Shown piece after piece: positions 31,950 through 49,964 of a stretch of DNA of 64,000 bases; position 1 is the stretch's first letter, and each line of letters opens with the position of its first letter. Source of the DNA: Treponema sp. UBA4377 (lineage in GTDB: Bacteria > Spirochaetota > Spirochaetia > Treponematales > Treponemataceae); assembly GCA_002391235.1 (NCBI GenBank), contig DGRX01000013.1, positions 68,742-132,741 on the forward strand, in the 5' to 3' direction. The notes under the pieces were generated by a model. That model saw only the letters and a program-made list of their open reading frames with translations. It ran no database searches and was not told where the DNA came from. A program made the translations under genes and the position numbers.

Positions 31950-32057
31950 AAAACGGCAAGACAAAAATCTTGCCGACGTTGCCCAAGTTAGCGGATTTCT
32001 CCGTTGTTCCCCCGGCGCCTTCCAATATAGCGCGCGTCCGCGTTTTTGTCATTAAAG
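31950..32057 (+). repeat. about 108-bp direct repeat (second copy at 32282..32389)
   Basis: AAACGGCAAGACAAAAATCTTGCCG...GCGGATTTCTCCG.TG.TCCCCCGGC..CTTCCAATATAGCGCGCGTC....TTTTTGTCATTAAAG. Confidence 0.7.
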
Positions 32058-32069
32058 TAATACTTTATT
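32050..32069. promoter_or_regulatory. palindromic cassette-boundary site s1 (variant CATTAAAG-taata-CTTTATT)
   Basis: The right arm runs into TTGACA (32068..32073), followed by N17 and TACACT (32091..32096), forming a plus-strand promoter. Confidence 0.6.
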
Positions 32070-32100
32070 GACAACTTCTTCTTTTTAGCTTACACTTAAA

Positions 32101-32170
32101 GAGCCTTGAGTGGCCGACCATGGGGGCAATAGTAGCCCTTTTCCGATTGACCACTTGAGGATTTTTTTTG
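32101..32170 (+). ncRNA. hairpin small RNA unit (HP family), copy a
   Basis: Starts about 7 nt after TACACT. Long imperfect hairpin GCCTTGAGTGG...CCACTTGAGG followed by T8. G-U pairs occur only on this strand. Confidence 0.5.
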
Positions 32171-32281
32171 CCCAATCGACTGTATGATATCGTTGGGCAA
32201 TTTTTTTTTGCAAAAAAAGGAGCCAAGAAAACCCAATATGCCGCGCTCTTATTACGCGGTGTTTTGATTTTCTTGGCTCAT

Positions 32282-32389
32282 AAAACGGCAAGACAAAAAT
32301 CTTGCCGCAAACACCCGAGTTGGCGGATTTCTCCGGTGCTCCCCCGGCATCTTCCAATATAGCGCGCGTCTGGGTTTTTGTCATTAAAG
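32282..32389 (+). repeat. about 108-bp direct repeat, second copy
   Basis: See 31950..32057. Confidence 0.7.
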
Positions 32390-32401
32390 TTCTGCTTTAA
32401 T
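32382..32401. promoter_or_regulatory. palindromic site s2 (CATTAAAG-ttctg-CTTTAAT)
   Basis: Contains the TAA stop of the ATPase gene; leftward ATGACA-N17-TATATT promoter. Confidence 0.6.
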
Positions 32402-33767
32402 GCGCGAACCGTGTTATCGTGTCTTCGATGGAATAGCCGCTGTCATTGGAATTGTTGTAAATGTCAATTAAAAAATATGAAATATCCAGCGCTGTCGTTT
32501 TTGAATCCATGTCGCATTTTCCATCGCAAAGAGTGGCAGAAAAAGCAATCTTGCCAAAATTTTCTTCTATGCAATCCGCAAGGGGCTTTGTCTCAAGTTG
32601 CCCCGAATGGTTGATTTCAAAAGCGAAAGTCTTTTTTTCTTTTCTGTCGCAAATGATTAAAATCGCGATGTCCTCATAGCCTTTGGATTTTGCCAACACT
32701 CTTGCGACGCGCCATCTGTACAGTTTTGTATATCCCAAGTCTTCGCAATAGTCGCCCTTTTTCTCCAGCATTTTGAATGCGTCCGCTATTACGAATTGTT
32801 CTAGAATTTTTTCATAAGCGCGCTCGCGGCTGTTGTTCAAACTTGCGAAGTACATTCCTGGATTTGAAAGCACCTCAAGACGATGGCAGCTTTTGTTCTC
32901 TTTTGGGTTGTCGAGGTTCACACGCAAGGTTTCTATGGGAAGTTCAAGTATCACATCCATTTCTTTTAGAAGCTTGTGAACTGTTTCATAAATCCGTTCC
33001 GAATATGAGTTGTAGAAATCGTCCAGCCCAATATTTTGAATGTAAAAATTTATAATCGTGCGAATCGCGTTTTCGGCCTCTTTTCTTTTGCAAGGATTTT
33101 TCAAATCGAGCGGGTAGCAATGCGGGCCTTTGTCGCTTTTTTCAACCGACTTTATGAAATTATCGACGATGCAAGATTCGATGTATTCTTTTGTTGACTG
33201 TTTTGTTTCAAAAGGATTTTGCTTTGACAGCGCGCATCCATGTTTGATGTAATGGTCGATGGAACTGTTGCCTCTAATTCTTGCGAATTCCGCAAACGGC
33301 ATGTATGTTGTATGAACAATTTCGATTCTGTCATACAAGCTTGAATGCGACGCAAGCGACAGCCCCAAAGACTCTGTTCCCGACACGACAATTCTGGCGT
33401 TTTTTAAGTCAACTAAATTGTCTGAAAGAACTTCCGCCAAAATTTGGAATTTGTCGGTAAGAGTTATCTCGTCAATAAAAAAATATTTTTTTCCGCTTGC
33501 GATTGACTCTCTTAAAAATTCCACAATCCGGCGAAAATTGGATTCTTTTTCACAAGTGATGAAAACGGATTTTTTTCTTTCTTCGTCTGGAATGGAAAGA
33601 GCCGCTTGCTTCATAAGCGTTGTTTTTCCTGTTCTTTTAAGCCCAAAAACGCCGCAAATTCGTTTTTGGTTTTCACTGCGCAAGTAATTAACAATCTTGG
33701 AAAGACAATCTCGCTTTTGAGGAAATTCATCTTTTATTTTGGAAATGTCAGTGGACCTAAAATCCAT
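32397..33767 (-). CDS. AAA+ ATPase (COG1373-like, probable DUF4143 C-terminal domain)
   Basis: Walker A GLKRTGKTT, Walker B FFIDEIT; 456 aa. Confidence 0.7.
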   Translation of the reverse strand: MDFRSTDISKIKDEFPQKRDCLSKIVNYLRSENQKRICGVFGLKRTGKTTLMKQAALSIPDEERKKSVFITCEKESNFRRIVEFLRESIASGKKYFFIDEITLTDKFQILAEVLSDNLVDLKNARIVVSGTESLGLSLASHSSLYDRIEIVHTTYMPFAEFARIRGNSSIDHYIKHGCALSKQNPFETKQSTKEYIESCIVDNFIKSVEKSDKGPHCYPLDLKNPCKRKEAENAIRTIINFYIQNIGLDDFYNSYSERIYETVHKLLKEMDVILELPIETLRVNLDNPKENKSCHRLEVLSNPGMYFASLNNSRERAYEKILEQFVIADAFKMLEKKGDYCEDLGYTKLYRWRVARVLAKSKGYEDIAILIICDRKEKKTFAFEINHSGQLETKPLADCIEENFGKIAFSATLCDGKCDMDSKTTALDISYFLIDIYNNSNDSGYSIEDTITRFAH

Positions 33768-33816
33768 AATTTCTTTTTGGCGGACAGGCGGGTGCCGCCA
33801 TTGCTTCCAAAAAAAT

Positions 33817-33928
33817 AAACTTTTGAAGAAGCGGGAGCGCTCTATATGCGAGTCTCAAATCCTCAAAAGTTTATGCCGAGGGCGTTAAGTGTGGTTACGC
33901 TCTATATGCGAGTTAGCACACTTAACGC
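33817..33928 (-). promoter_or_regulatory. 5' leader of the ATPase gene with two hairpins carrying a conserved loop
   Basis: The stems differ (AAACTTTTGA/TCAAAAGTTT and GCGTTAAGTGTG/CACACTTAACGC) but the loops share CGCTCTATATGCGAGT. A third copy lies at 42129..42185. Confidence 0.5.
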
Positions 33929-33968
33929 TCTCGACAGGATTGATTATAGCGCGCGTCTGGGTTTTTGT

Positions 33969-33988
33969 CATTAAAGTTCTGCTTTAAT
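33969..33988. promoter_or_regulatory. palindromic site s3 (CATTAAAG-ttctg-CTTTAAT)
   Basis: Leftward promoter ATGACA-N17-TATAAT feeds the ATPase leader. A rightward GATATAAT box lies at about 34010. Confidence 0.6.
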
Positions 33989-34022
33989 GCGCGAACTGGC
34001 GGCGCGCGATATAATTACAAAT

Positions 34023-34613
34023 ATGGGCGTTGACATTTTATATTATGTGGACCATGACTTGCCGACGGATTGCGCGCAAAGTTTTTTGGCTGAATTTAAC
34101 AAGCGCGCCGGAGCTGACGGCAAATGGCGAATTATTGGCGGTTGGGCTGACGGTTCGTTAGAAAAGCAATTTCCAAATCCGGGCGGAGACATACATATTT
34201 ATAAGACTTGCGGCGATTCAGAGATTGAGTTGGAATTTGAAAAAAACACATTGCTGATTCGAAAATTGCCCGGCTGGACGGATAAAGTGGATTTTTGCAG
34301 ATGGCATACAATGAACGATTTCTTTGCTCAGAATGTCGATTATGCCAAGGAATGGAAAGAAAATCTTGTTTCGTTAATCAAAGAAAATCTTGCGCAAGTG
34401 TTCCATCCAACAAAAGTGATTCTTTTAAAGGACAGTTCCAGCTACGAGCATGAAACGTTGGGCGGCGAAAACCTTGAGGAGGAGGGCGGCACGATAGAAG
34501 AAGCCCTCGCGCTCAATTCAACCTTTGAAGAGCCGTGCGCCGTTTTGAAAAACGACGAGGCCTTTGGCCACTCGAAGGATTTACGCCAGCCGATATACGT
34601 TTTTGATTTGTGA
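34023..34613 (+). CDS. hypothetical protein
   Basis: Start chosen at MGVDILYY (the track ORF starts inside site s3); no recognisable motif. Confidence 0.5.
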   Translation: MGVDILYYVDHDLPTDCAQSFLAEFNKRAGADGKWRIIGGWADGSLEKQFPNPGGDIHIYKTCGDSEIELEFEKNTLLIRKLPGWTDKVDFCRWHTMNDFFAQNVDYAKEWKENLVSLIKENLAQVFHPTKVILLKDSSSYEHETLGGENLEEEGGTIEEALALNSTFEEPCAVLKNDEAFGHSKDLRQPIYVFDL

Positions 34614-34644
34614 AAGATGTCCTTGCCGCCAAGGCCGCAGCTCT

Positions 34645-35595
34645 TCATTCTTCTTTTTCAAAGAACGCCTTGTAAAAGCGCGTGGCGAGCGGTTGGCCAA
34701 AGGCGTCGGCAAGTTTTTGCGTCGCGCTTTCTTGGATCCAATTTAGCTCGCCGCCGACTTGCGACTTTATGTCGTTTATTTTCTTCATCGTCTTTTTGTA
34801 GAAGCTGTTGAATTCCACCAGCGTCATCGGCTGGATGCCAAGGTTATTTGTGTCGATGATTCCAAAAACTTGATGCCGCTTTGAGTCTGTCGCTACCACG
34901 ATATTTTCGCGGCCAGTCTTCATGTCTTTGTCCGTGAGCGCGACAAAATCGCCAAGGCAATATTCTGTGTGGCCAACCACTTGCGTTTGGTAATGCGCGT
35001 CGCGCAACAGCGCCTCTGGCCGGATCCACAGCGGGCCTTGCGTGACTTCGTTTCCGCTTCCGCTAAAATATCCGTGCCAGTCCAAGAGTTCCTCAAACTC
35101 GTAGTTGAACGCAGCGTCTCCCTTTTGGAGCGAAAGCGAGCGCCAGGTCTTGTTCAAAAAGTCAATCGACCATTTGCTTGCGTTCATGTTAAAAAGTTTT
35201 AGAATTGTCGCGACCCAAGTTTTGGAAAAGCCGCCGTGCGAGAACGCCACGCCGTCCGCCTCAAAAGCCAAGTCCAATATGTCGCGCGCGGAAAGCAAAA
35301 GACTTTTTATTATGCCCGCCCTTTCGTTTTGGTGGCCGGAACAGCCAGCGCCGTAAACCGTCGCGCTTAGGTAGCTCCAGTCGTGGTTTCCCAAAAGCGC
35401 CTTTCTGCGCTCGGGGTCCTGGCGGACAAAGGCGCAAATCGCCTCAAAGTTTTCGCCTTGCTCTGGCCACTTGTTTTCCCACGCGTCAAAGTAGTCGCCC
35501 ATAAAGACAATGCGGTCGTAGGAATCTTGCGGAAAACTTTTTGCCGCCTCCCACTCGCGCGAGCCGTGAACGTCTGGAACAACTAAAACTTTCAT
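34645..35595 (-). CDS. PPP-type metallophosphoesterase (Ser/Thr phosphatase or ApaH-like) with a C-terminal extension
   Basis: Motifs PDVHG, GDYFD, GNHD, SHGG, GHTE; start at MKVLVVPDVHG directly after a TATAAT box (near-leaderless). Confidence 0.75.
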   Translation of the reverse strand: MKVLVVPDVHGSREWEAAKSFPQDSYDRIVFMGDYFDAWENKWPEQGENFEAICAFVRQDPERRKALLGNHDWSYLSATVYGAGCSGHQNERAGIIKSLLLSARDILDLAFEADGVAFSHGGFSKTWVATILKLFNMNASKWSIDFLNKTWRSLSLQKGDAAFNYEFEELLDWHGYFSGSGNEVTQGPLWIRPEALLRDAHYQTQVVGHTEYCLGDFVALTDKDMKTGRENIVVATDSKRHQVFGIIDTNNLGIQPMTLVEFNSFYKKTMKKINDIKSQVGGELNWIQESATQKLADAFGQPLATRFYKAFFEKEE

Positions 35596-35627: not shown

Positions 35628-35647
35628 CATTAAAGCGCAACTTTAAT
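35628..35647. promoter_or_regulatory. palindromic site s4 (CATTAAAG-cgcaa-CTTTAAT)
   Basis: Immediately upstream (minus strand) of the promoter of 34645..35595. Confidence 0.6.
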
Positions 35648-35678: not shown

Positions 35679-36008
35679 TTATGATTTTAGACGAGCTATG
35701 ACTGCGGACACGGCTTTTATGTCATCGTCGCTAAGCGAGTTCAAATCTTTAATAAGCCTTAAGACCGGCTTTTTAGTCTCTCTAGGAACGGAGGATTCAG
35801 AGTTTGAAACTAAGTATTCAACCGAGACGTTAAGCGCGTTTGCCAACTTTACTGCTTCTGTGGCTCTAGGAACTGTGCCTGCTTTTCTCATGCTAGACAC
35901 GGTGGTTTCAGAAATGCCCATTTTGCTGGCAAGCCATCGGTATGTCGTGTTTTGCTCTCTTCGTAATGCTTCGACATTTTTCCAAAAAACCATACTTTGA
36001 TTATACAA
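35679..36008 (-). CDS. XRE-family HTH transcriptional regulator
   Basis: NTTYRWLASKMGISETTVSSMRKAGTVPRATEAVKLANALNVSVEYLV. Confidence 0.75.
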   Translation of the reverse strand: MYNQSMVFWKNVEALRREQNTTYRWLASKMGISETTVSSMRKAGTVPRATEAVKLANALNVSVEYLVSNSESSVPRETKKPVLRLIKDLNSLSDDDIKAVSAVIARLKS

Positions 36009-36124
36009 AGGTGAAATGCTTATTTCCGTAGTTTTTCTATTGAATAATGCGGTTTTAAGTAGTATATTTGGTAATAACTACGAAAACCCGTAGTTCTTAT
36101 AAATTCAATTTAGGAGAAGAAAAA

Positions 36125-36973
36125 ATGAAAAGAATTTTTTCTGTTAGACTTGCGGTTTTTGCCACAATATCATCGTTGCTTTTAGCGTCTTGCTCTTCAA
36201 CAAAGTCTATTGGGGTTAACACAAAAAAGACAGAGACCAATATAGTTGACTGGTCGAATAGGAATCTTGACGTCGTGGCCAAGCCAGAGTGGCTAAAAAA
36301 ATTGGTGGTAGGAAATTCCGATTTATTTAAAAAAGAATTTGGGGTTGAAAAGGACGCTATAGTAAAATTTGGAATCGCCGGAGCTAAGACACGTGACGCT
36401 TCGATTGCCGCTAGCCGGGTTAATTACAATGCCATGAGGGCGGAAGAGATAAAGAAAAAGGTTGTTTCGGAGGCTGCTGCAACGCTTAACAATGAAGGTT
36501 ATACAGAGGCGATAGCCAATGCGGCGTTTGTTGCTAAACTTGACTTGAGCGGGCACCAACTAGTTACACAGTTTTGGCAGAAGATTGAAAGCTATGATAA
36601 AAAGAGCGACGAAATTACAACAGAATTTATATGCTATTCTGTTTATAAAATTTCAAGAGAAGATTGGACAAAGACATTAAAGGGCTATTTATCTCAAGTA
36701 ATTCCCGCTCTACCTGATTCGCAAGCCCAGGTGAAAATGGCCCAGACAATCAAGTCTTTGTATGAAGACACTGCAAAAGAAAAAGAGATGAGCCAGCAGG
36801 CGGCTTTGGCTCAGTTCAGGGCTCAGGAAGAAGAAGCTCGCGTAAAGCAAGCCGAGGCTGCCGCGCAAGTTGCCAAGAACAATTCTGTGGCGGCTGTGGA
36901 GCAGGCGAAACGAGCGTCAAACAATGTTGATTGGGCGAGCACTCTATCGAAGGCTGCTGAAAACTTGTATTAA
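36125..36973 (+). CDS. lipoprotein (LPP20-like?)
   Basis: MKRIFSVRLAVFATISSLLLASCSS lipobox; Ala/Gln-rich coiled C-terminus. Confidence 0.6.
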   Translation: MKRIFSVRLAVFATISSLLLASCSSTKSIGVNTKKTETNIVDWSNRNLDVVAKPEWLKKLVVGNSDLFKKEFGVEKDAIVKFGIAGAKTRDASIAASRVNYNAMRAEEIKKKVVSEAAATLNNEGYTEAIANAAFVAKLDLSGHQLVTQFWQKIESYDKKSDEITTEFICYSVYKISREDWTKTLKGYLSQVIPALPDSQAQVKMAQTIKSLYEDTAKEKEMSQQAALAQFRAQEEEARVKQAEAAAQVAKNNSVAAVEQAKRASNNVDWASTLSKAAENLY

Positions 36974-36979
36974 AATAAT

Positions 36980-38008
36980 ATGGACATGAAAGATTTTAAT
37001 AAATCGCTTGCGTGCGTTTTAATTTTCATGTGCGCGTCTGGACTTTGTTTTGGAAAAAGCAAAAAAAAGGATTCCAAGGCAAAGTCCGACGCCCCGCTTT
37101 GGCTTACTGACGCGGGCCGATATTCTGTTTTTCCTGACAGCAGTTTTGTTTCTTCGTTTGCAAACGGGAGCTCCGCCGATGAAGCCAAAGAAAAGGCGTT
37201 GGCCGAAATTTCGCATGGAATTAAGACAAGCGTTTTGGCTGAAACAAAGCGACGGTATTCTATGGCGCAAGAAGGTTATTCAGCCTCGGAAAGGCTTTCT
37301 ATAGACGAAAAACAAAAGATTCAGTCTAAGAATGATCTTTACATGGCTGAATGGACAACGCCTTATTATGATTCGGCAATGGGGATGTACGCTTGTGTCG
37401 CTTACATAAACAGAAGAAAGGCTTTTGAGTATGTTCGGCCTACGCTGGACAAAGCAAAAGAGCTGTTTCCTGACGCGTATCAAAAAGCACTTTTACAAGA
37501 TGATGACTTTAAGAAAATAGTCTGCATTAAGCGGAGCCAAGACTTGTTAAAAGATTTCTATTCCGTTTATGATTTCGCGCGCTTTATACAGCCAAGCGCG
37601 GCGGAAGACTATCATGACATTGATTTGCTTTGCGGAAAGAGTTTCGCCAAGTTGAGCGAATTGAAGTCAAAGGTTGTAGTCAGTGTTCTCGTCAAAAAAG
37701 ATGCAAATGTCGAAGCAAAAGAATGCCTTAAAAAAGTTCTGAATGACGCGGGTTTTTCTGTTTCGGATTTTGATTCCAGCTATGTCGCTTTGTTGGAAAC
37801 ATCCTTTGAGATTGCAAAGAAAGAAAAGGTTTATTTATCTTATCCGGCTATTTCTGTTGAAGTGCGAAGGGTTGCTGACGGCCAGATTGTCGGTTCATAT
37901 TCCAATAAGTTGGAAAAATGCGCCGGCTTTGACTTGAATGGGGCAAAGCAAAAGGCCGAATTCGAAATAAAAAGGGATTTGGAAGAAAATTTTATAAGCA
38001 AACTGTAA
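36980..38008 (+). CDS. secreted protein, function unknown
   Basis: Signal peptide LACVLIFMCASGLCFG; same operon as the flanking lipoprotein genes. Confidence 0.6.
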   Translation: MDMKDFNKSLACVLIFMCASGLCFGKSKKKDSKAKSDAPLWLTDAGRYSVFPDSSFVSSFANGSSADEAKEKALAEISHGIKTSVLAETKRRYSMAQEGYSASERLSIDEKQKIQSKNDLYMAEWTTPYYDSAMGMYACVAYINRRKAFEYVRPTLDKAKELFPDAYQKALLQDDDFKKIVCIKRSQDLLKDFYSVYDFARFIQPSAAEDYHDIDLLCGKSFAKLSELKSKVVVSVLVKKDANVEAKECLKKVLNDAGFSVSDFDSSYVALLETSFEIAKKEKVYLSYPAISVEVRRVADGQIVGSYSNKLEKCAGFDLNGAKQKAEFEIKRDLEENFISKL

Positions 38009-38017
38009 GAGGTTTTT

Positions 38018-39529
38018 ATGAAAAAGAAGTTTTTGTTTGTCGCTTTGTTGACAGTTATGAGCGCCGCTTTTTTTTGCCAGGTCACTGACTCAAAGAAGGG
38101 GTATTTTAAGTTGGCGTGGGGATCCACGGTTGAGGATGCAAAGAAAGCTGGGTATAAATTGACAAAGCATGAGTTGAGTTCTAAGGCGCGTGAAGACTTG
38201 CTCGAACCGGTTGATTTTTATTTAGTTACCCCCCGAGAGAGTGTAGTAAAAAACCTTTCCTTTTGGTATTACGACGGAAAGCTTTTTGATGTTTTCGAAA
38301 AGGTTCAACTGCAAAATGTTCAGTCCAAAATCGAAAGCCGCTATGGAAATTTTAAGAAAAATGGAATTTCTAAGCTTAGTAATGGCGTTATGACGGATGT
38401 TGTATTAGATAATAACGGTAAGATTCTTTCTAGCTCGATTTCCATTGCGCCAAATGGATCTCAACTTGATGTTGCAATGTTCGATTGGAGTGTCGCAAAA
38501 AAAGTTTTTAAAAACTTTAGAGATTCTGCGGCGGATGTTGGCGGCAACGACAGCGAAGGTCTTGTATCAGCTCTTGAAACGCTGGCAAAAAAGCTTGTGA
38601 ATACAGGCGACGACAAAGTTTCGACATACGCGATTCTGAAGTTTTCTTCCGATTTTAACAATGTTCAGTATGAGGAATATATTACGGACATTTTAACAGA
38701 AGCTATTTTCAATACCGGTTCTGTAAAAATTATAGAACGCGCTAACCTTGAAAAAATTCTAAAAGAGCAAAAGCTTCAAGCAAGTGGTTTGATAAATGAA
38801 AAGACTGCTAAGGCGGTTGGAATGGTGTCTGGCGCGGATTACGTTTGCTACGGCTCCATAAAAGACATTGGAGCAAAATTCACGATCATTGCCCGCGTTG
38901 TTGATGTTGAGACAGGCGAAATTTGCGCGATGAGCCGTGACACAATCGAAAAGGACGAATATTTGCTTGGTTCATCTGGCGGTTCCTCTCGTTCACCTGA
39001 GACTAAATCAAATCGCGTTTCCGGCAAACCTGACAAAACAGCATGGACGTTAAAAAAATACAGAAGCGAGTTTGATGGATGCACTATTTACACATTTATT
39101 TGTCCATGCGCGGATGGCGCTTTCTTGTTCTTTGGCTATGAAAAGCGAGACAATCCATTGGAGTCTAGAGTTAGGGCTTGCCATGGAAAAATATATTCCG
39201 ATGGTTATGTTGTAGATATAAAGCTTGAAAATGGCGCCTTTGTACATAAAGAGCTTGATTATAACGGTGGAAATTCTTTTCGCTGGTATTTAAAATCAGG
39301 AACGGTAAAGGGGGCTTTCGATGCAGAACGCGTAAATATTTATAAAGAAACAGTAGAAGATGCTAGGGACTTTTACAATTATTACAAAGAAAATGATTCT
39401 ATTATTTTAAGAGAAACCAAAAGGGATTCGATCCATAGTTTCAAAACAGCAGGTTTTATGGCTTTGCTTGAGCAAAACGGGATAACCGACAAAGAGATTA
39501 TGGACGCCTTGGCAAACGAAGAGTTCTAG
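38018..39529 (+). CDS. secreted protein with a CsgG/LpoB-like domain
   Basis: VKIIERANLEKILKEQKLQASGLINEKTAKAVGMVSGADYVCYGSI resembles the CsgG/LpoB/FlgO-type fold signature. Confidence 0.55.
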   Translation: MKKKFLFVALLTVMSAAFFCQVTDSKKGYFKLAWGSTVEDAKKAGYKLTKHELSSKAREDLLEPVDFYLVTPRESVVKNLSFWYYDGKLFDVFEKVQLQNVQSKIESRYGNFKKNGISKLSNGVMTDVVLDNNGKILSSSISIAPNGSQLDVAMFDWSVAKKVFKNFRDSAADVGGNDSEGLVSALETLAKKLVNTGDDKVSTYAILKFSSDFNNVQYEEYITDILTEAIFNTGSVKIIERANLEKILKEQKLQASGLINEKTAKAVGMVSGADYVCYGSIKDIGAKFTIIARVVDVETGEICAMSRDTIEKDEYLLGSSGGSSRSPETKSNRVSGKPDKTAWTLKKYRSEFDGCTIYTFICPCADGAFLFFGYEKRDNPLESRVRACHGKIYSDGYVVDIKLENGAFVHKELDYNGGNSFRWYLKSGTVKGAFDAERVNIYKETVEDARDFYNYYKENDSIILRETKRDSIHSFKTAGFMALLEQNGITDKEIMDALANEEF

Positions 39530-39633
39530 GTTTTTAAAAACTGGCTTTCCACGAAAATTGGAAAGCCAGTTTTTTTTTGCAATTGCCCCGACGGTAACTT
39601 GTCATAGAAGTAATTTTTTAATATCTTTATTAT

Positions 39634-40422
39634 ATGAGCGTAAAATTTCTTGTGCCGGAAATTAACAAAAAAAGGTGGGCCGCTGAGTTCAAGAAAAGAA
39701 TCCGTTCTCGCAAATTAAAGTCAAAGGACTTGTGCGACATTGGCGCGGAAACAAATTACGAGCAGAAAATTAATAAATATAAAAACGGCGCGATACCCTC
39801 AATAGACATCTTTTTGACTTTTTGCAGGTTTTTTAATCTTCCGCCGGATTCATTTTTGTTCGCAAAGCCTAAATGGGTGGAATGTGACATCGCCTTTGGG
39901 AACATAGGCATTTCATTAAATCGATGGCTGGGATGGTTGGGCGATGTTTTCTATATAATTCCATTTAATGAAAATAAAAACGAAGACAAAAAGAGTCGTG
40001 GCGGCGTTTCCACTTATAAAGTCACTCTCTTTGACAAAGAGCCAAGTCCCTCAAAATTTTCGACTTTTCATCTTTCTGGAACGGAATATGACTTAAAAGA
40101 GCGCGTTAAAGATGGAAAAGTTATTTATCGATTTCCTCATGTGAACAACGAAAGAACCTCTAAAAAAATTTTCTCGCTTTTGAAAAAATACAAGCTTTCA
40201 AACAAGCAAATACAAGCCTTGCTGGGCTTAAGCTGCCAGTCTCTGACAAACAGAAAAAGGGAAATCCAGTCTTGGACAACCCAAGACATTTACAAATTGT
40301 CCTGGGTTTTAAATAAGCCTTTTGAAAGTCTTCTTGTAATTGATTACAGGGAAGAAACCCGCGAAGCGCTTTTTGATCCAATTGTTTTCTTAAGGGAGTG
40401 CTTGCGCGATGCCTATCACTAA
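39634..40422 (+). CDS. double-HTH protein (paralog of 29397..30215)
   Basis: MSVKFLVPEINKKRWAAEFKK.. aligns by eye with MKAKFLVPEIDTKRWAEDFKE..; it has the same two HTH segments. Confidence 0.6.
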   Translation: MSVKFLVPEINKKRWAAEFKKRIRSRKLKSKDLCDIGAETNYEQKINKYKNGAIPSIDIFLTFCRFFNLPPDSFLFAKPKWVECDIAFGNIGISLNRWLGWLGDVFYIIPFNENKNEDKKSRGGVSTYKVTLFDKEPSPSKFSTFHLSGTEYDLKERVKDGKVIYRFPHVNNERTSKKIFSLLKKYKLSNKQIQALLGLSCQSLTNRKREIQSWTTQDIYKLSWVLNKPFESLLVIDYREETREALFDPIVFLRECLRDAYH

Positions 40423-40443: not shown

Positions 40444-40710
40444 TCATGCTTCTTCGTATTCAAAATCAACGGTTCCTTTGGCGACAAGATCGTCCATTTT
40501 TACGCCAAGGATGGACTCCAGAGCCAAAAGGTTGTCCAAAGAAGGCATGTTTTTTCCGGCGAACCAATTGTAAATAGTTTGAACGTAAGGAAAGCCAAGC
40601 CTGGCTTGAACTTGTCTTGGCGTAATTCCTTTTTGTTCCATAACCGTCTTGATCTTTCGTCCTGTTCCCTTCATGTCTGGAACGGCCTTTATATAAGATG
40701 ATTTAATCAT
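40444..40710 (-). CDS. XRE-family HTH transcriptional regulator (paralog of 29043..29339)
   Basis: GRKIKTVMEQKGITPRQVQARLGFPYVQTIYNWFAGKNMPSLDNLLALESILGVKMDDLV. Confidence 0.75.
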   Translation of the reverse strand: MIKSSYIKAVPDMKGTGRKIKTVMEQKGITPRQVQARLGFPYVQTIYNWFAGKNMPSLDNLLALESILGVKMDDLVAKGTVDFEYEEA

Positions 40711-40766
40711 GGAAAACTCCTGTTTAAGCTTATCGTTGCTTTTGCAATTGCATTCACTGTCTACAG

Positions 40767-40843
40767 ATTATAAAGCATCGCTTTAATTTGTCATTAAACT
40801 TAAAATTTAAAGTGTTTGTGTTAAAGAACGTCTTTAATGACAA
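40767..40843. promoter_or_regulatory. operator cluster between divergent XRE genes (three variants of the cassette palindrome plus two promoters)
   Basis: ATTATAAAG-catcg-CTTTAAT (40767..40787), CATTAAAC..TTTAAAG (40792..40812), GTTAAAG-aacgt-CTTTAAT (40820..40838). Leftward ATGACA-N16-TATAAT and rightward ATGACA-N17-TATCCT. Confidence 0.55.
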
Positions 40844-40896
40844 TTCACCGTTTCTGCGTTATCCTACGTTCAGATAGGAGACATGCGTGGTTTATG

Positions 40897-41127
40897 GAAA
40901 GACCTGTGATTGACATTCCCGCGACGTCAAAGAGACTCAAAGAAATTCGCGAAAAGCGCGGGCTAAAAATATCAGATGTTCAAAAGTTCTTCAAATTTGA
41001 ATATCCGCAGGCCGTTTACGATTGGGAGAACCCCGAGAAAAAGACTCTTCCCAGAATCGAAAACCTTGTCTTCTTGGCAAAGATTTACGGTGTTTCTATG
41101 GACGAGCTGATTGTTTATGAGCGGTGA
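40897..41127 (+). CDS. XRE-family HTH transcriptional regulator
   Basis: KRLKEIREKRGLKISDVQKFFKFEYPQAVYDWENPEKKTLPRIENLVFLAKIYGVSMDELI; start chosen at MERPV. Confidence 0.7.
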   Translation, partial: ERPVIDIPATSKRLKEIREKRGLKISDVQKFFKFEYPQAVYDWENPEKKTLPRIENLVFLAKIYGVSMDELIVYER

Positions 41128-41687: not shown

Positions 41688-41707
41688 CATTAAAGCCGCG
41701 CTTTAAT
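41688..41707. promoter_or_regulatory. palindromic site s6 (CATTAAAG-ccgcg-CTTTAAT)
   Basis: Contains the TAA stop of 41703..42110 and feeds the leftward promoter of 41157..41651. Confidence 0.6.
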
Positions 41708-42220: not shown

Positions 42221-42240
42221 CATTAAAGTATTACTTTATT
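42221..42240. promoter_or_regulatory. palindromic site s7 (CATTAAAG-tatta-CTTTATT)
   Basis: Leftward promoter for 41703..42110. Rightward TTGACA (42239..42244), N17, TACACT (42262..42267). Confidence 0.6.
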
Positions 42241-42271
42241 GACAACTTCTTCTTTATGGCTTACACTTAAA

Positions 42272-42340
42272 GAGCCTTGAATGGTCGACCGCGGGGGTAA
42301 TAAGAACCCTCTTTCGCTTGACCATTCAAGGCTTTTTTGT
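42272..42340 (+). ncRNA. HP small RNA unit, copy g
   Basis: GCCTTGAATGG...CCATTCAAGGC followed by TTTTTTG; the interior differs from other copies but still pairs. Confidence 0.5.
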
Positions 42341-42446
42341 TGTGTCAACTTACCTCGAACAGCATTATAATCGCGCTTTAATCAAATTACATTTTTTGTT
42401 GACAAAATTGTATTTACACTTTATAATTACTTTTAGGCGGTGAGAA

Positions 42447-43020: not shown

Positions 43021-43040
43021 CATTAAAGTATTACTTTATT
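43021..43040. promoter_or_regulatory. palindromic site s8 (CATTAAAG-tatta-CTTTATT)
   Basis: Rightward TTGACA-N17-TATACT. Confidence 0.6.
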
Positions 43041-43071
43041 GACAACTTCTTCTTTTTGGCTTATACTTAAA

Positions 43072-43140
43072 GAGCCTTGAGTAGACATCTGGGTGGGAAA
43101 ATATATCCCTCTTCCACGTGTCCACTCAAGGCTTTCTTGT
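43072..43140 (+). ncRNA. HP small RNA unit, copy h
   Basis: GCCTTGAGTAG...CCACTCAAGGC followed by TTTCTTG. Confidence 0.45.
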
Positions 43141-43155
43141 TGTGTCAACTTCCCC

Positions 43156-43267
43156 AAAAAAAAACGCTCCCGCCAAAAGGCAGGAGCGAATGCCGTTAGA
43201 GGGCAGCGCTCCTCTGTCGCAGAATCCCGAAGGAAACACCGCAGTGGCTATCTCTGACGTAAACGAC
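43156..43267 (-). ncRNA. empty-cassette transcript T2 (promoter, conserved leader, conserved tail, terminator, no ORF)
   Basis: TATAAT at 43279..43274. Leader GTCGTTTACGTCAGAGATAGCCACTGCGG. Tail identical to the 3' end of 46536..47183. Terminator CGCTCCTGCC-TTTT-GGCGGGAGCG plus T9. Confidence 0.5.
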
Positions 43268-43299
43268 AAGCGTATTATAGCGCAAGAGCGGGAAGCGCG

Positions 43300-43319
43300 C
43301 ATTAAAGTTGCGCTTTAAT
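43300..43319. promoter_or_regulatory. palindromic site s9 (CATTAAAG-ttgcg-CTTTAAT)
   Basis: Contains the TAA stop of 43315..44022; provides the -35 region for T2. Confidence 0.6.
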
Positions 43320-44071: not shown

Positions 44072-44091
44072 CATTAAAGCCATACTTTAAT
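44072..44091. promoter_or_regulatory. palindromic site s10 (CATTAAAG-ccata-CTTTAAT)
   Basis: Leftward TACAAT promoter for 43315..44022. Confidence 0.6.
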
Positions 44092-44176: not shown

Positions 44177-44241
44177 TAAAATCTAATTCAAAAACAAGGC
44201 ATTGTCAATAAAAGCAAGCGGTCTTTTTCCAACTTGGCGGC

Positions 44242-44640
44242 TTAGTAGCCGTAGCCATAATTGTTGGGGGGATTTTGCTGAGGTCGTTTCTTGCGCTTAA
44301 AAATCATTTCTAAAGAAGCACCGCCAGCGAACGCAGTAATTCCTGCTAACTCCCAGCCCTGTTCTCCAAGTTGGTTCATTCTTTCTTGGGTTACTTTAGT
44401 AACTTCTTCAGACATATACTCCCATTTGGTCAACTCTTCCTCTTCCATTCTTCTTCTCGCGGCCGCGTCCTGCGCGGCCATTCTCTCGTTCTCGGCCTTT
44501 ATCTTTTCCGCCTCGGCGTTGAGCCTCGCGGTCTCGGCGCGGATCTTCTCGATTTCTCCGCCTGGTTCGACGCCCGTCTTTCCGCCTTCGACGGCGCGCG
44601 GCCGCGGCAAGTCGCTAAAAATGTCAAATTCGACGCTCAT
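44242..44640 (-). CDS. DUF4177-like protein with an N-terminal coiled coil
   Basis: C-terminal WEYMSEEV...MNQLGEQGWELAGI matches the DUF4177 pattern. Confidence 0.55.
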   Translation of the reverse strand: MSVEFDIFSDLPRPRAVEGGKTGVEPGGEIEKIRAETARLNAEAEKIKAENERMAAQDAAARRRMEEEELTKWEYMSEEVTKVTQERMNQLGEQGWELAGITAFAGGASLEMIFKRKKRPQQNPPNNYGYGY

Positions 44641-44691
44641 GCGCCCCCTCCTTGTTTCCTTAAAAAATTCTAAGCCATGCCGCCAATTTTG

Positions 44692-45146: not shown

Positions 45147-45166
45147 CATTAAAGTATTACTTTATT
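45147..45166. promoter_or_regulatory. palindromic site s11 (CATTAAAG-tatta-CTTTATT)
   Basis: Leftward TACAAT-like promoter for the HEPN gene. Rightward TTGACA (45165..45170), N17, TACACT (45188..45193). Confidence 0.6.
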
Positions 45167-45197
45167 GACAACTTCTTCTTTTTGGCTTACACTTAAA

Positions 45198-45266
45198 GAG
45201 CCTTGAGTGGTCAATCATGGGGGCAATAGTAGCCCTCTTTCGTTTGTCCATTCAAGGCTTTTTTGT
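45198..45266 (+). ncRNA. HP small RNA unit, copy k
   Basis: GCCTTGAGTGG...CCATTCAAGGC followed by TTTTTTG; inner stem GGGGGC-AATAGTA-GCCCTC contains a G-U pair. Confidence 0.5.
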
Positions 45267-45437
45267 TTTAATTGACAAATAATTTTTTCTTGTGATATAT
45301 TTTTTGAAAGAGCTTTAAAAAAAAGACCGCCACGTTCCCTAGCACTGCAAAAAGCAGGAGAAAGGATTGCGTGGCTTACATAAGCATTATATGCGATATT
45401 AGTATAAAAGTCAAGGACAGATTTTTATTGGAATAAT

Positions 45438-45926: not shown

Positions 45927-46010
45927 CGTTGTTGCGGCGGGGGTCGAACCCGCAATACGAACTTTATTGCGTAAAGTTTCCTCTACCGCGTTGAGGGCAT
46001 CGCAACAACG
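45927..46010 (-). ncRNA. tRNA-mimic element TL2
   Basis: 10-bp stem CGTTGTTGCG/CGCAACAACG, linker ATGC, D arm CCTC-AACGCGGTA-GAGG, 6-7 bp anticodon-like stem, T arm GCGGG-TTCGACC-CCCGC, then TTTTTTT. Confidence 0.55.
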
Positions 46011-46106
46011 GGAAGCGGCGGAAACCGTAACGACGGTAAACGCCGTTACAGCTACAAGCCTGAGCGCTCTCGTTTCCGCGGACAGACGGGTGCCGCCATT
46101 GCTTCC
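46011..46106 (-). ncRNA. 3WJ element, copy v3 (directly 5' of TL2 on the minus strand)
   Basis: Hairpin P3 is CTGTAAC/GTTACGG (a U-G pair on the minus strand). Confidence 0.5.
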
Positions 46107-46248
46107 AAAAACTCAAAACAAGCCGGATTAATTCCGACTGCCCCAAGCAAGATTCCATTGGTAAACTTGAATCTCAGAAACAATATCTGAGGCAGAGATT
46201 TACTGACAATGGAATTAATTAATTATATAGCATGGATGCGATTCTTGT

Positions 46249-46268
46249 CATTAAAGTATTACTTTATT
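46249..46268. promoter_or_regulatory. palindromic site s12 (CATTAAAG-tatta-CTTTATT)
   Basis: Leftward TATATAAT promoter reads towards v3/TL2; rightward TTGACA-N17-TATATT. Confidence 0.6.
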
Positions 46269-47183: not shown

Positions 47184-47218
47184 AGCGGCGTTATTATAGC
47201 GCAGGAGACGGAAGAGCG

Positions 47219-47238
47219 CATTAAAGCCGCGCTTTAAT
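47219..47238. promoter_or_regulatory. palindromic site s13 (CATTAAAG-ccgcg-CTTTAAT)
   Basis: Leftward ATGCGC-N17-TATAAT, 9 nt before the ATG at 47183. Confidence 0.6.
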
Positions 47239-47248
47239 GAAAAAAAAC

Positions 47249-47345
47249 GGAAGCGGCGGAAACCGTAACGACGGTAAACGCGCGTTACGGCTACAAGCCT
47301 GAGCGCTCTCGTCTCCGCGGACAGGCGGGTGCCGCCATTGCTTCC
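47249..47345 (-). ncRNA. 3WJ element, copy v4
   Basis: P3 is CCGTAAC/GTTACGG; followed on the minus strand by GTTTTTTTT. Confidence 0.5.
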
Positions 47346-47444
47346 AAAAGACGCGGAAAACAAGACCGCGCTTTTATTGGACAGGATACAACAAGCGCTA
47401 TCTCTCGCCCAACAATTTTATTATAATGCAAAAACGGTTTTTGT

Positions 47445-47464
47445 CATTAAAGTTGTACTTTAAT
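47445..47464. promoter_or_regulatory. palindromic site s14 (CATTAAAG-ttgta-CTTTAAT)
   Basis: Leftward ATGACA-N16-TATAAT promoter. Confidence 0.6.
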
Positions 47465-47470
47465 TTGTTG

Positions 47471-48523
47471 TCAGTATGGAACGAAAGTCAACTCGTTCGT
47501 CGCCACGGTGAAAAGGCTTTGTAGCGCCGCTGACATGGAAGTGTCCGTTGTCGTTCCGCTTGAGTTTGTCGTGGTTTCGCTTGACACTAAAGTCCACTTC
47601 ATTTGCTGCGCGGTTCCGGAGACTTCGAAAACGTCGGAAATCGACACGTAGTTGCCGCCGCTGTTGTCTATTTTGAATTTTATTGTTATTCGAGAGCCGC
47701 TCATCGTCGCCTTGCAGTTGGTGTAAAGGCCGGAGGCGCTTCCGCCTTTGAACATGTTGAAAGAACTGTCGCTATTTATCTTCAAGTACGTTCCGCTTTG
47801 CGCTTCCCCTTGTTTTTTCCAAGAGCCCACGACGGAGAAACTGGGGCTTTGTCCGCCGGACGAGCCGCCGGAAGAAGCGTCGAAGGTTATGGAATAAGTT
47901 TCCGAAAAGATGGGAGATGAATCCTTCAAGTCTCCGCGGACGAACATCGCCTCGATTTTTCCCTCCGAAGTTTTTCTTAAAGCAAGAGCTTTGACATAAG
48001 GATTGCTTCTTGACGTGGGGCTGTTTTTGTTCGTTATGACTTCGTAGAGACAGGCGTCGGTCGCGTGGAAATTTCTTCCGGGTCCGGACATGAGCGTCGC
48101 GACGGCCGAATTCAAGTCTTGCGAGAGGTCGGGATGAAGCGCGACCGCCTCGTTCGTCGCCGCGTTTAGAGTTGAAACGCCTTTCCAATTGTTCAAAAGG
48201 TGGCTGTACTGTCCTGTTTGAATGGTCTTAGCGTCGGCGTAGAACACTCCTCCCGAATAGCCTTTGAACTCTCCGTCCGCCGCGAAAGTAAGCGTCGCTT
48301 TCTCCGAGTCGATGACTAGGGTGTTGGTCTTTCCCTGCGAGTCGATTTTGGTCCACGTTCCGGCCATCGCGATGTATTTTGTCTTTGCGGCCGCTGCCGC
48401 CAAGTCGGCTTCGCTTTGTCCGCCGCCACCTCCACCGCCAGAAGCGTTGGAACATCCAGCCAATGTCAATGCCGCTGCAGCCGCAATAGCGGCGATTTTG
48501 CGCCGCGCAAAAATTTTCTTCAT
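47471..48523 (-). CDS. lipoprotein with a Gly-rich linker, function unknown
   Basis: Start at MKKIFARRK (AAGGAG upstream), lipobox LTLAGCS followed by GGGGGG. Confidence 0.6.
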   Translation of the reverse strand: MKKIFARRKIAAIAAAAALTLAGCSNASGGGGGGGQSEADLAAAAAKTKYIAMAGTWTKIDSQGKTNTLVIDSEKATLTFAADGEFKGYSGGVFYADAKTIQTGQYSHLLNNWKGVSTLNAATNEAVALHPDLSQDLNSAVATLMSGPGRNFHATDACLYEVITNKNSPTSRSNPYVKALALRKTSEGKIEAMFVRGDLKDSSPIFSETYSITFDASSGGSSGGQSPSFSVVGSWKKQGEAQSGTYLKINSDSSFNMFKGGSASGLYTNCKATMSGSRITIKFKIDNSGGNYVSISDVFEVSGTAQQMKWTLVSSETTTNSSGTTTDTSMSAALQSLFTVATNELTFVPY

Positions 48524-48596
48524 TTTTTTGCTCCTTATTTTTTTTTCTTGTCTCTCAACCGACGGAGAAAAGTATAGAGCAAACAATGGGTTAGCG

Positions 48597-48616
48597 CATT
48601 AAAGTTGTGCTTTAAT
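48597..48616. promoter_or_regulatory. palindromic site s15 (CATTAAAG-ttgtg-CTTTAAT)
   Basis: Upstream of the lipoprotein gene promoter; left boundary of module A. Confidence 0.6.
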
Positions 48617-49060
48617 ACTGTGCCAGTTGAGATGATGCAACGTTGCGCCATCTTGTATTTCTTTCTTAATTGTCAACGGATTCGTTTTTTCCATAGTGCC
48701 TAAAAGTGCCCCAAAAGTGCACTCAAAGTGCCCCAAAAAAAATGTAATGTGGGGCACTCTAAAGCACTATAATAAAAAGAATTAAACGAATTATGGGGCA
48801 CTTTTCTTTATCTTGCCTTTCGGACAAATCACTTGACTATTTCTTCTTAGGGTGTATTTTCATCCTGCCAACTTTTTTTTGCTTGGTACGGACGGCTTTT
48901 GGCTAGCCGGGAGCAGTCCTTGGGTAAAATGACTGACTGGCTCGCAAGATGGCGCAACGTTGCGCCGTCTTAACTGCGAAAATTTTTCTAGGGAAAGCGC
49001 AAACTTTCAGCTTATAAGAACTTAGTTTGCGCTGGTAACCTGAGCCATAATTTTTTTTTC
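48617..49060 (+). repeat. ORF-free module A (iterons AGTGCCCC, flanking 22-24 bp palindromes)
   Basis: Palindromes GATGATGCAACGTTGCGCCATC (48631..48652) and AGATGGCGCAACGTTGCGCCGTCT (48947..48970). Iterons at 48695..48802. Stem AGCGCAAACT/AGTTTGCGCT. Parallel architecture to 49965..50394. Confidence 0.65.
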
Positions 49061-49202
49061 TTGACAAATGGCATATCCATAATTATATTCTAATTAAGCG
49101 AAGAAGTGGGGCGTACGAGCCAAAAAGGTAAATGGCTTTTGGCTTGAGCTCTTCAACGAATTTTCCGACAATGTCTTTTATTTGTATTTTTGCTTCTCTT
49201 GT

Positions 49203-49222
49203 CATTAAAGTTGTTCTTTAAT
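49203..49222. promoter_or_regulatory. palindromic site s16 (CATTAAAG-ttgtt-CTTTAAT)
   Basis: Same left-flank polarity as the other sites. Confidence 0.55.
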
Positions 49223-49369
49223 TATTCAATAAACCATTGACGGAATTATGTTTGCCTGTTACTATATTATCGCTTGAAGAGGAATCAATTTCTTCGCCGA
49301 GTGTTAAAGGCTTGTCCGAAAGGGCAAGCCTGATTTTTTTAAACTGAAGCGGCGGATTTTGTCATTGCT

Positions 49370-49479
49370 AAAAAAACGCTCCCGCCAAAAGGCAGGAGCG
49401 AATGTCGTTAGAGGGCAGCGCTCCTCTGTCGCATAATTCCAATGGAAAAGCCGCAGTGGCTATCTCTGACGTAAACGAC
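49370..49479 (-). ncRNA. empty-cassette transcript T3
   Basis: TATAAT at 49491..49486; same leader, tail and terminator as T2. Confidence 0.5.
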
Positions 49480-49511
49480 AAGCAAATTATAGCGCAAGAT
49501 CGGGGAGAGCG

Positions 49512-49531
49512 CATTAAAGCCGCGCTTTAAT
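49512..49531. promoter_or_regulatory. palindromic site s17 (CATTAAAG-ccgcg-CTTTAAT)
   Basis: Provides the -35 region for T3. Confidence 0.6.
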
Positions 49532-49545
49532 AACATGCGATGCAA

Positions 49546-49764
49546 TCAATGACGGGCAGCTTTTTTTTCTTCTTCCAAATAAGAGCTGATTTTGCGAATT
49601 ATTTTTGCGACGTCGAACTAATCGGGATTTTTTATGGACGCGGAATATTTTTCAGTTTCCACATCAAATGTCAATCGGTATTTTTGGTGAGGAAGGGTGT
49701 CCATTGATTCGACAATCATGGACACATTTCTTCCAGTCCGTTCAATGTTGGTAAGCTTTATCAT
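49546..49764 (-). pseudogene. small ORF with an in-frame TAG (48 plus 23 codons)
   Basis: MIKLTNIERTGRNVSMIVESMDTLPHQKYRLTFDVETEKYSASIKNPD-stop-FDVAKIIRKISSYLEEEKKAARH; TAG at 49620..49618. Confidence 0.4.
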
Positions 49765-49814
49765 GTACGTTTTTGTAAACTTTTCTTTTCACTTTTCTTA
49801 GTGAACATAAAAAC

Positions 49815-49911
49815 GGAAGCGGCAGAAACTATAAATGCGGTGAACGCCAGATATGGCTACAAACCTGAGTTTCACGAAATATACGCTCAGGTGGGTGCTG
49901 CCATTGCTTCC
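49815..49911 (-). ncRNA. 3WJ element, copy v6
   Basis: TATAAT (49923..49918) lies 7 nt before the first G; followed on the minus strand by GTTTTTAT. Confidence 0.5.
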
Positions 49912-49944
49912 AAAAATATTATAGCGCTCGTCTTTAGCGCTTGT

Positions 49945-49964
49945 CATTAAAGTTGTGCTTTAAT
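49945..49964. promoter_or_regulatory. palindromic site s18 (CATTAAAG-ttgtg-CTTTAAT)
   Basis: Supplies ATGACA-N18-TATAAT for v6; left boundary of module B. Confidence 0.6.

Follow-up and report, generated by a model that had tools for sequence, protein, structure and literature searches.

In the genome of Treponema sp. UBA4377, a stretch of 64,000 nucleotides (contig DGRX01000013.1, positions 68,742 to 132,741; hereafter the window) holds a genomic island in which a 20-bp palindrome, CATTAAAG-N5-CTTTAAT, recurs at the borders of small units that contain one gene, one small-RNA-like module, or nothing, as a preliminary description made from the letters alone had noticed. Judging from its sequence context, this palindrome probably serves as the operator of a Cro/CI-type (XRE) regulator that the island itself encodes, and it would have been distributed over many portable promoter modules. 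The most likely candidate for the protein that binds it is XRE88, an 88-aa helix-turn-helix (HTH) protein encoded in the island.

The 20-nt pattern was scanned on both strands with up to two mismatches and a chance level taken from shuffles. This yielded 37 strand-matches in the window, corresponding to 19 sites, against an expectation of 0.34 (largest shuffle, 4). When only the 14 arm positions were scored, 20 sites were recovered, all within 32,051-49,946, and the same scan was empty for the left part of the island (23,239-32,000), for 36,246 bp of core flanks, and for 105,595 bp of homologous loci that lack the island (L001-3, L005, L006). All 17 palindrome coordinates listed previously are right, and the triple variant reported at 40767-40843 exists as a group of three sites, termed here O-a, O-b (3 mismatches) and O-c. 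The idea that the motif is confined to the island holds only in part: it is absent from the core DNA here, but arrays occur in at least 11 Treponema/Spirochaetaceae genomes, sometimes spread over several large contigs of one genome.

The sites stand in a fixed position relative to promoter elements. On the minus strand the layout is ATTAAAG-N5-CTTTAATG, then ACA or CGC, then 16-18 nt and GCTATAAT, so that the final AT of the arm forms the first two bases of a -35 hexamer and the center of the dyad therefore lies at about -43. The polarity that the preliminary description had reported was recovered, with a TATAGC-like box 16-18 nt to the left of the palindrome in 15 of the 19 sites, and its minus-strand reading as CTTTAATG(ACA or CGC)-N-GCTATAAT is correct. 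The same is true of the variant right arm at five sites (32050, 42221, 43021, 45147, 46249), where CTTTATTGACA-N17-TAYAYT points right, and of the three genes whose stops at 32397, 41703, and 43315 fall on palindrome position +15, in the arm that is CTTTAAT on the plus strand and ATTAAAG on the genes' minus strand. This overlap is less striking than it seems, since two of the three reading frames meet a TAA within the palindrome.

This arrangement extends to other genomes. A scan of 596 Gb with a composite operator-promoter pattern gave 29 matches, of which 26 are Treponema/Spirochaetaceae loci from 11 genomes and three are attributable to chance; the loci most similar to the island are found in gut and rumen Treponema metagenome-assembled genomes. 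Together with the window, the 26 loci form a pooled set of 114 sites. A -10 box was counted as in register if it matched TATAAT at five or more of six positions and lay 16-19 nt after the hexamer that begins with the AT of the arm. Such a box is present on at least one face of 98 sites (86%) and on both faces of 24, which bears out the earlier claim of promoters joined to the sites at a constant spacing. The -35 hexamer reads ATGACA at 64 of the faces and ATGCGC at 41. At 74 sites the palindrome is perfect with a promoter on one face only, and it is therefore not a by-product of back-to-back promoters. Across 116 sites the arms are invariant and the 5-bp spacer occurs in at least 26 variants, and the arrays of the pooled set reach 10 sites in 8 kb. 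The palindrome thus combines dyad symmetry, conserved arms, a free spacer, and overlap with promoter elements, all of which are features of an operator.

The candidate regulator is encoded in the same part of the island. XRE88 (40444-40710, minus strand; PF01381 at 1.8e-10), the proposed operator-binding protein, is divergent from a second small Cro/CI-type HTH gene, XRE96/77 (40897-41127, plus strand; PF01381 at 3e-7), whose open reading frame (ORF) opens at 40837 and to which gene callers assign 77 aa in L007-L013. Between the two XRE genes (40,444-41,127) lie O-a, O-b, and O-c, spaced 24 and 27 bp center to center. O-a (TATAAAG-CATCG-CTTTAAT, 40769-40787) is located between the -35 and -10 boxes of the XRE88 promoter, the weak site O-b (ATTAAAC-TTAAA-ATTTAAA, 40793-40811) abuts the -35 of that promoter, and O-c (GTTAAAG-AACGT-CTTTAAT, 40819-40838) adjoins the -35 of the promoter that leads right into the second gene (ATGACA-N17-TATCCT). 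The triple-operator region is conserved in L023, L029, L030, L043, and L052 (six genomes with the window); in the first four of these, changes inside the three sites are limited to the spacers, and L052 differs more widely outside the sites. A paralogue of XRE88 with a near-identical recognition helix, XRE98 (29043-29339, minus strand; repeat family D17), also has a site with three mismatches (~29363-29381) abutting the -35 of its promoter.

An alignment of 43 XRE88 homologues, reaching down to 53% identity, shows an invariant recognition helix, FPYVQT(I/V)YNW. In five independent lineages at 54-60% identity (P0010, P0072, P0066, P0059, P0093), one palindrome each, with 0-2 mismatches, is found 323-351 nt upstream of the regulator gene, abutting ATGAnn-N17-TATAnT, where the chance expectation per locus is far below 0.01. 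An orthologue of XRE96 is absent from several of these five loci. In the P0059 lineage, genes for a metallophosphoesterase and an RNA ligase are also preceded by sites, and another lies near a SLOG gene; of these three families, the window has phosphoesterase and SLOG members but no counterpart of the RNA ligase. The suggestion that arrays follow every XRE88 homologue was rejected, as homologues of ~60% identity lack arrays and instead carry a single site on their own promoter. Because this single near-consensus site is on the regulator promoter in all five distant lineages, we conclude from these sequences that the palindrome would be the ancestral autoregulatory operator of the XRE88 family, spread to many cargo promoters in one clade. 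An HTH_3 protein encoded by the element, a site on its own promoter that is conserved with the family in five of five distant lineages, a conserved triple-operator switch, and invariant arms over a free spacer together favor the operator of an island-wide regulon, one of the options that the preliminary description had raised.

In the mechanism that we propose, an XRE88 dimer would occupy each site, with one helix-turn-helix on each ATTAAAG arm, and the operator would be built into a portable promoter module of ~46-52 bp. This module would have been copied before ~20 cargo units here, and many more in related Treponema, with a cargo of toxin-antitoxin and defense-like genes, phosphoesterases, lipoproteins, and four small structured RNA families. 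The XRE88 gene itself would lie in a CI/Cro-like switch, facing the second XRE gene across a tripartite operator. Since binding would overlap the upstream edge of the -35 box and the UP-element zone, occupancy may repress by blocking contacts of sigma region 4 and of the C-terminal domain of the alpha subunit at intrinsically strong promoters. With modest confidence, we favor repression as the effect of binding because promoters of the ATGACA/TATAAT kind are near-consensus, and so, in the distant lineages, are those of the regulator genes themselves. The whole cargo set would then be silent until the switch flips. Negative autoregulation would fit the weak O-b on the -35 of XRE88 itself and O-a over the core promoter, and the partner XRE gene, behind a standard operator-promoter, would be induced together with the cargo, much as Cro is. 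The regulator might also activate from -43, above all at promoters of the ATGCGC class with its poor -35.

Several points weigh against this proposal. A center at -43 is the classic position of an activator, and the 41 ATGCGC faces match TTGACA at only two of six positions. Sixteen of the 114 pooled sites have no recognizable promoter on either face. Other HTH proteins might bind instead of XRE88 or as well, namely the 77/96-aa XRE protein and two paralogous proteins of 262 aa (39634-40422, plus strand) and 272 aa (29397-30215, plus strand), each of which has an N-terminal and a C-terminal HTH segment of the XRE type; the 262-aa tandem-HTH gene is the last in an operon of lipoprotein and CsgG-like genes, an operon that invariably adjoins the XRE switch. 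Finally, flanking sequences reassort within the palindrome itself, which a pure operator model explains only indirectly. An economical reading is that the shared module is the place where homology-driven or short-homology exchange resolves; the mosaic, cassette-like look would arise because the short module is the main sequence common to unrelated units and rearrangements resolve there.

The reassortment could instead indicate that the palindrome is a site-specific recombination site, integron-like or Xer/dif-module-like, in place of or besides an operator, which we consider unlikely. L037 has both palindromes of the S4 RNA unit and lacks only the AAA-ATPase cassette, a 1,587-bp segment with an identical 52-bp palindrome module on either side in the window. 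In L009, L012, and L013, which lack the genes for 177-aa and 135-aa proteins, the left flank of site 41688 is joined to a spacer and right flank of the type found at S2 RNAs, with the switch from shared to unshared sequence at the boundary of the CATTAAAG arm and the spacer and a shared block of ~30 nt on the retained side. Units between palindromes recur at conserved length (753, 256-260, and 312-340 bp) with different neighbors, and in several genomes the neighbors differ on one side. Of 228 pairs of sites with a single flank in common, 83 have the same spacer, 82 have spacers that differ by one base, and 63 have spacers that differ by two bases or more; the exchange point thus falls on either side of the spacer, and exchange therefore occurs within the palindrome. 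The machinery for such recombination is nevertheless a poor match. The sole recombinase is of the lambda type, and its att site is a tRNA-Val repeat unrelated to the palindrome. An attC site is an imperfect hairpin of 57-141 nt with R'' (RYYYAAC), R' (GTTRRRY), L'', and L' boxes. A crude scan for attC-like R/L boxes gave no hits in the island and none in any shuffled control, so that it has little demonstrated power, and none of 18 palindromes is flanked by RYYYAAC...GTTRRRY. Tyrosine recombinases have overlap regions of 6-8 bp that must match between partner sites, and a spacer of 5 bp in at least 26 variants fits such a crossover badly. The expectation that cassette variation would be bounded by the sites is borne out in part, by the ATPase cassette and by the units that recur intact, but several indels lie elsewhere: the gene for a 132-aa protein (44209-44688), which L025 and L043 lack, has a 7-bp TTGTCAA direct repeat on either side in the window, the mark of a microhomology-type indel; a PHP-like gene of 752 bp lies between convergent stops, away from palindromes; and the indel of the 177-aa gene has one end inside a -10 box. 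Lineages without arrays still carry single sites on regulator promoters, and a recombination site would leave the fixed register with the -35 and -10 boxes unexplained. The layout had been called integron-like, a comparison that does not survive, as the island has only a lambda-type integrase at a tRNA site, no attC-like architecture was found in it, and the units have their own promoters pointing both ways. An integron proper was rejected on the same grounds, in that the integrase is not a tyrosine recombinase of the IntI type, which is marked by an IntI-specific insertion, and its Xer matches are below threshold; the crude attC scan is empty; and the units, rather than being promoterless cassettes in one orientation that are transcribed from one Pc beside attI, have -35/-10 boxes on either strand, including the 24 divergent pairs of the pooled set. 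A Xer/dif-type (pdif) module was rejected as well. A pdif site is 28 bp long, with two different 11-bp arms, for XerC and XerD, around a 6-bp spacer, whereas in the palindromes of the island both arms are alike and 5 bp lie between them. It seems doubtful that the operator-promoter palindrome doubles as the crossover point of a cassette exchange that needs neither IntI nor attC, for which the agents would be the island integrase, host Xer proteins, or an unrecognized factor. If it did, cargo units, each with its regulated promoter built in, would be inserted, deleted, and reshuffled at a duplex site of 20 bp, and one sequence would serve both recombination and regulation, which would make the island a "regulated integron".

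We also hold it improbable that the repeats are a selfish or passively reused mobile promoter, or a MITE-like repeat, without a dedicated regulator, the palindrome being only a UP-element-like or bidirectional promoter core for RNA polymerase. The arms are indeed A/T-rich at -37 to -53, where UP elements act, and the repeated unit is longer than the palindrome, as seen in the 46-52-bp chassis and in a 125-bp S2 module with 27 distinct copies. Promoter reuse is, moreover, a documented phenomenon (PMC3575422). Against this explanation, perfect dyad symmetry is retained at the 74 single-promoter sites, three sites cluster in the XRE/XRE switch with one over a -10 box, the palindrome co-occurs with the XRE88 family in five of five distant lineages, and an alternative palindrome occupies the same slot of the same chassis. 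A role at the RNA level, in which a hairpin would end or process the transcript of the gene before it, is very improbable. Three genes do end inside the palindrome, and the isolated hairpin folds at -4 to -8 kcal/mol, but neither strand has a U-run after the hairpin, two of five tested sequences fold no better than shuffled controls, and in two the minimum-energy fold pairs otherwise. In addition, transcription of the units behind the element is predicted to start downstream of it.

The operator reading, in which the palindromes control promoters, can be followed site by site through the array. Palindrome 32050-32069 has ATGACA-N17-TATATT on its left face, directed at S4-like and S1 RNA modules, and TTGACA-N17-TACACT on its right face, directed at an S2 hairpin RNA. 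At 32382-32401, the left face (ATGACA-N17-TATATT) leads to an S4 RNA module and the right arm contains the stop of the AAA_14 ATPase gene. Palindrome 33969-33988 lies inside a 52-bp module identical to 32358-32409 (repeat family D8), with divergent promoters for the AAA_14 ATPase gene on the left (33767 to 32397) and a gene of 208 aa on the right (probable start 34023). The promoters at 35628-35647 are divergent as well, with ATGCGC-N18-TATAAT leading left to a metallophosphoesterase gene and ATGACA-N17-TATAAT leading right to the lipoprotein/CsgG-like/tandem-HTH operon (35698-40422). Beyond the XRE switch, palindrome 41688-41707 has ATGCGC-N18-TATATT on the left for the 177-aa gene, and its right arm contains the stop of the 135-aa gene, which is preceded in turn by the left face of 42221-42240 (ATGACA-N16-TATAAT); the right face of the latter leads to an S2 RNA. 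A degenerate site with two mismatches (42363-42382) overlaps the TATAAT box 5' of brnT/brnA. At 43021-43040 a promoter is found on the right face only (TTGACA-N17-TATACT), for an S2 RNA. Palindrome 43300-43319 directs ATGCGC-N18-TATAAT left toward an S3 RNA module, and its right arm contains the stop of a 235-aa gene that has its own promoter, ATGCAC-N18-TACAAT, on the left face of 44072-44091. The left face of 45147-45166 (ATGACA-N17-TACAAT) leads to a HEPN gene and the 132-aa gene, and the right face to an S2 RNA. Palindrome 46249-46268 serves an S1 RNA on the left (ATGACA-N18-TATAAT) and a short hairpin RNA on the right (TTGACA-N17-TATATT). The remaining sites have their promoter elements on the left face: 47219-47238 (ATGCGC-N18-TATAAT) before a metallophosphoesterase gene, 47445-47464 (ATGACA-N16-TATAAT) before an S1 RNA (47366 to 47239), 48597-48616 (ATGCGC-N18-TATACT) before a lipoprotein gene that ends at 47471, 49203-49222 with ATGACA and no clear -10 box, 49512-49531 (ATGCGC-N18-TATAAT) before an S3 RNA module, and 49945-49964 (ATGACA-N18-TATAAT) before an S1-variant RNA.

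The RNA-like modules belong to four families. S1 modules lie on the minus strand at 47239-47366, 46004-46122, 31840-31950, 49809-49915, 25231-25329, and 25644-25756; they are ~110 nt long and have a closing stem GGAAGCAATGGCGG...CCGCCGCTTCC and a three-way junction. Across genomes S1 has 16 distinct copies, with compensatory changes at four base pairs and a U-run at the end of half of the copies, and it contains no conserved ORF and has no Rfam match. S2 modules, on the plus strand at 32070-32167, 42241-42341, 43041-43141, and 45167-45275, consist of a long hairpin of ~75 nt and a U-tail, with the promoter TTGACA-N17-TACACT fused to the variant palindrome arm; in the copies of the 125-bp module from Treponema loci, one pair covaries as CG, UA, and AU. 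S3 (43156-43275 and 49370-49483, minus strand; 11 distinct copies) ends in a strong terminator, and both this family and S4 (32231-32356 and 31950-32024, minus strand; 13 distinct copies) have operator-bearing promoters. Rfam returned only two tRNAs, both at the gathering threshold and at E <= 1.

A second palindrome, TTACTCACGTTGAGTAA, is found at 25362-25378, 25775-25791, and 30229-30245 (four strand-matches, or three sites, against 0.08 expected). The copies at 25362 and 25775 stand where the first palindrome would be, directly against a TTGACA -35, and the surrounding promoter chassis is the one from which S1 RNAs are driven. This points to a second specificity of regulation in the island's left part and is as expected if operators are swappable. 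A third palindrome, GGCGCAACGTTGCGCC, is present at 48634-48649, 48951-48966, 49982-49997, and 50286-50301 (four copies against 0.13 expected); it lies within longer hairpins near the right end of the island, with no U-run after it and no promoter boxes.

The island itself is inserted at a tRNA gene. Its integration target is tRNA-Val (CAC) at 23165-23238 on the plus strand, identified by ARAGORN and Rfam; the 3' end of this gene forms the left copy (23212-23239) of a 28-bp direct repeat, CGTTGGTTCGATCCCAATATCATCCAAA, the right copy of which (50965-50992) marks the other boundary. L002 and L003, which lack the island, align across both of its ends with a 28-nt overlap, and in five related strains (L001-3, L005, L006) the site is empty, MatE directly adjoining tRNA-Val and PTA. 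The window therefore holds an insertion of 27.7 kb (23,239-50,992) with the marks of a tRNA-integrated genomic island: an integrase beside the tRNA, direct repeats at both ends, and absence from sister strains. The integrase is a lambda-Int-type tyrosine recombinase of 376 aa (23319-24449, plus strand; PF00589; phrog_1 integrase 2e-52) whose best PDB matches are lambda integrase structures, e.g., 5j0n and 1p7d. Its NCBIfam matches to XerA, XerD, and XerC are weak and below threshold, and TIGR02249, which we take to be the family specific to integron integrases, is not among the NCBIfam families listed for it. Just after the integrase, at 24629-25232 on the plus strand, a Phd/YefM-like ORF of 90 aa and a short RelE/ParE-like frame form a candidate toxin-antitoxin pair. 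The further cargo includes PIN/MazE, BrnT/BrnA, HEPN, four metallophosphoesterases, a SLOG protein, the AAA_14 ATPase, lipoproteins including the CsgG-like one, and several XRE regulators, and cargo genes have only weak matches in PADLOC and PHROGs. In L031 (RUG14489 contig asm_1), the operator-promoter at 19, 2200, and 5745 stands before genes for an RtcB RNA ligase, a WCX-domain protein, a DUF2828/DUF7788/VWA protein, and a GDSL lipase; given this different cargo, the putative regulon would not be limited to the cargo of the window. A prophage or phage satellite was rejected, as there are no structural, replication, or packaging genes and the PHROGs matches are to the integrase and a repressor only. 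No DNA match to the island was found in the phage collection, and neither the island nor its flanks had a megablast match among plasmids, E. coli genomes, or phages. The composite pattern had one match among viral contigs, which is a chance match in view of its single site, lack of homology, and 33% GC content. The core flanks contain PTA, tRNA-Val, MatE, MalK, tRNA-Thr, GrpE/DnaK/DnaJ, and flagellar genes and are syntenic with contigs of an uncultured spirochaete. A second strain-variable spot lies 5' of MalK in L001, L003, L005, and L006 (~53.6-54.1 kb in the window, near tRNA-Thr at 53779-53851), where radical-SAM/SPASM, peptidase C14, and DUF4384 genes replace GrpE/DnaK.

The proposed system shares features with several known ones. 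As in the CI-Cro switches of lambda and 434, two small divergent HTH genes face each other across three dyad sites ~24-27 bp apart, one of which overlaps a core promoter while the others abut the -35. The XRE88 family is weakly similar to phage repressors, at ~40% to HTH proteins of unannotated faecal phage contigs and 30% to an annotated CI repressor. Unlike in those switches, there is no phage here, and the operator is also fused to ~17 further cargo promoters. KorA/KorB of IncP-1 plasmids and the CUP repeats of IncN plasmids with ArdK are cases in which a short operator or promoter repeat precedes many units under one element-encoded repressor. The repeat described here likewise precedes many transcription units of one mobile element, but it resides in a chromosomal tRNA island of a spirochaete, the regulator is of the XRE type, the modules are shuffled between genomes, and the cargo consists of toxin-antitoxin, defense-like, and small-RNA units rather than transfer and maintenance operons. 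The C proteins of restriction-modification systems are XRE proteins of ~80 aa whose dyad sites abut or overlap the -35 and which activate and repress depending on concentration. XRE88 resembles them as a small XRE protein with dyad sites, predicted to be bound, at the -35; C-boxes differ in sequence and control one operon, compared with ~20 promoters here. In mycobacteriophages of cluster A, one immunity repressor acts at dozens of stoperators dispersed over a mobile genome (PMC9283540, PMC6550527). The island similarly has many sites dispersed along one mobile element. Stoperators are, however, said to be asymmetric sites of 13-14 bp that are bound by monomers, are oriented with transcription within transcription units, and block elongation, and membership of this class was rejected because the sites here are symmetric, upstream of the -35, and locked to promoters.

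Chromosomal integrons exist in Treponema (PMC3607928, PMC6557892), a genus whose sigma-70 promoters are functional in E. coli (PMC6557892), and the island shares with them the genus, strain-variable small units rich in toxin-antitoxin and unknown genes, units without ORFs, and stops that enter the boundary element. Its boundary element, however, is a 20-bp duplex palindrome locked to promoter boxes, with no IntI or attC found. Putative mobile promoters (PMC3575422) resemble it in that near-identical promoter segments stand before unrelated genes, within and between genomes, whereas the segment reused here carries a defined putative operator tied to a co-resident regulator family. Taken as a whole, the proposed system would work like a CI/Cro switch with its operator distributed over a mobile element, and in this it resembles KorA/KorB regulons, IncN CUP repeats, and stoperators. 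It departs from each of them in the symmetry of the site, in the way the site is strictly joined to the -35, and in a modular, shuffled cargo to which small RNAs belong, and no description of such a system was found in the literature.

The comparisons define an uncharacterized regulator family and its putative DNA site in uncultured gut and rumen Treponema and point to four unannotated small-RNA families, which would be co-regulated with the cargo if our proposal is true. They also provide an example on which to ask whether the recombination of modules in islands is driven by the regulatory sites that they share. If ~20 promoters of a mobile island do answer to a single small XRE switch, this would be a natural form of standardized plug-in regulation, in which any cargo would gain island-wide control by acquiring an operator-promoter module of ~50 bp. 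A mosaic defense and toxin-antitoxin island could then be shut off or activated as a whole despite the lack of a conserved gene order.

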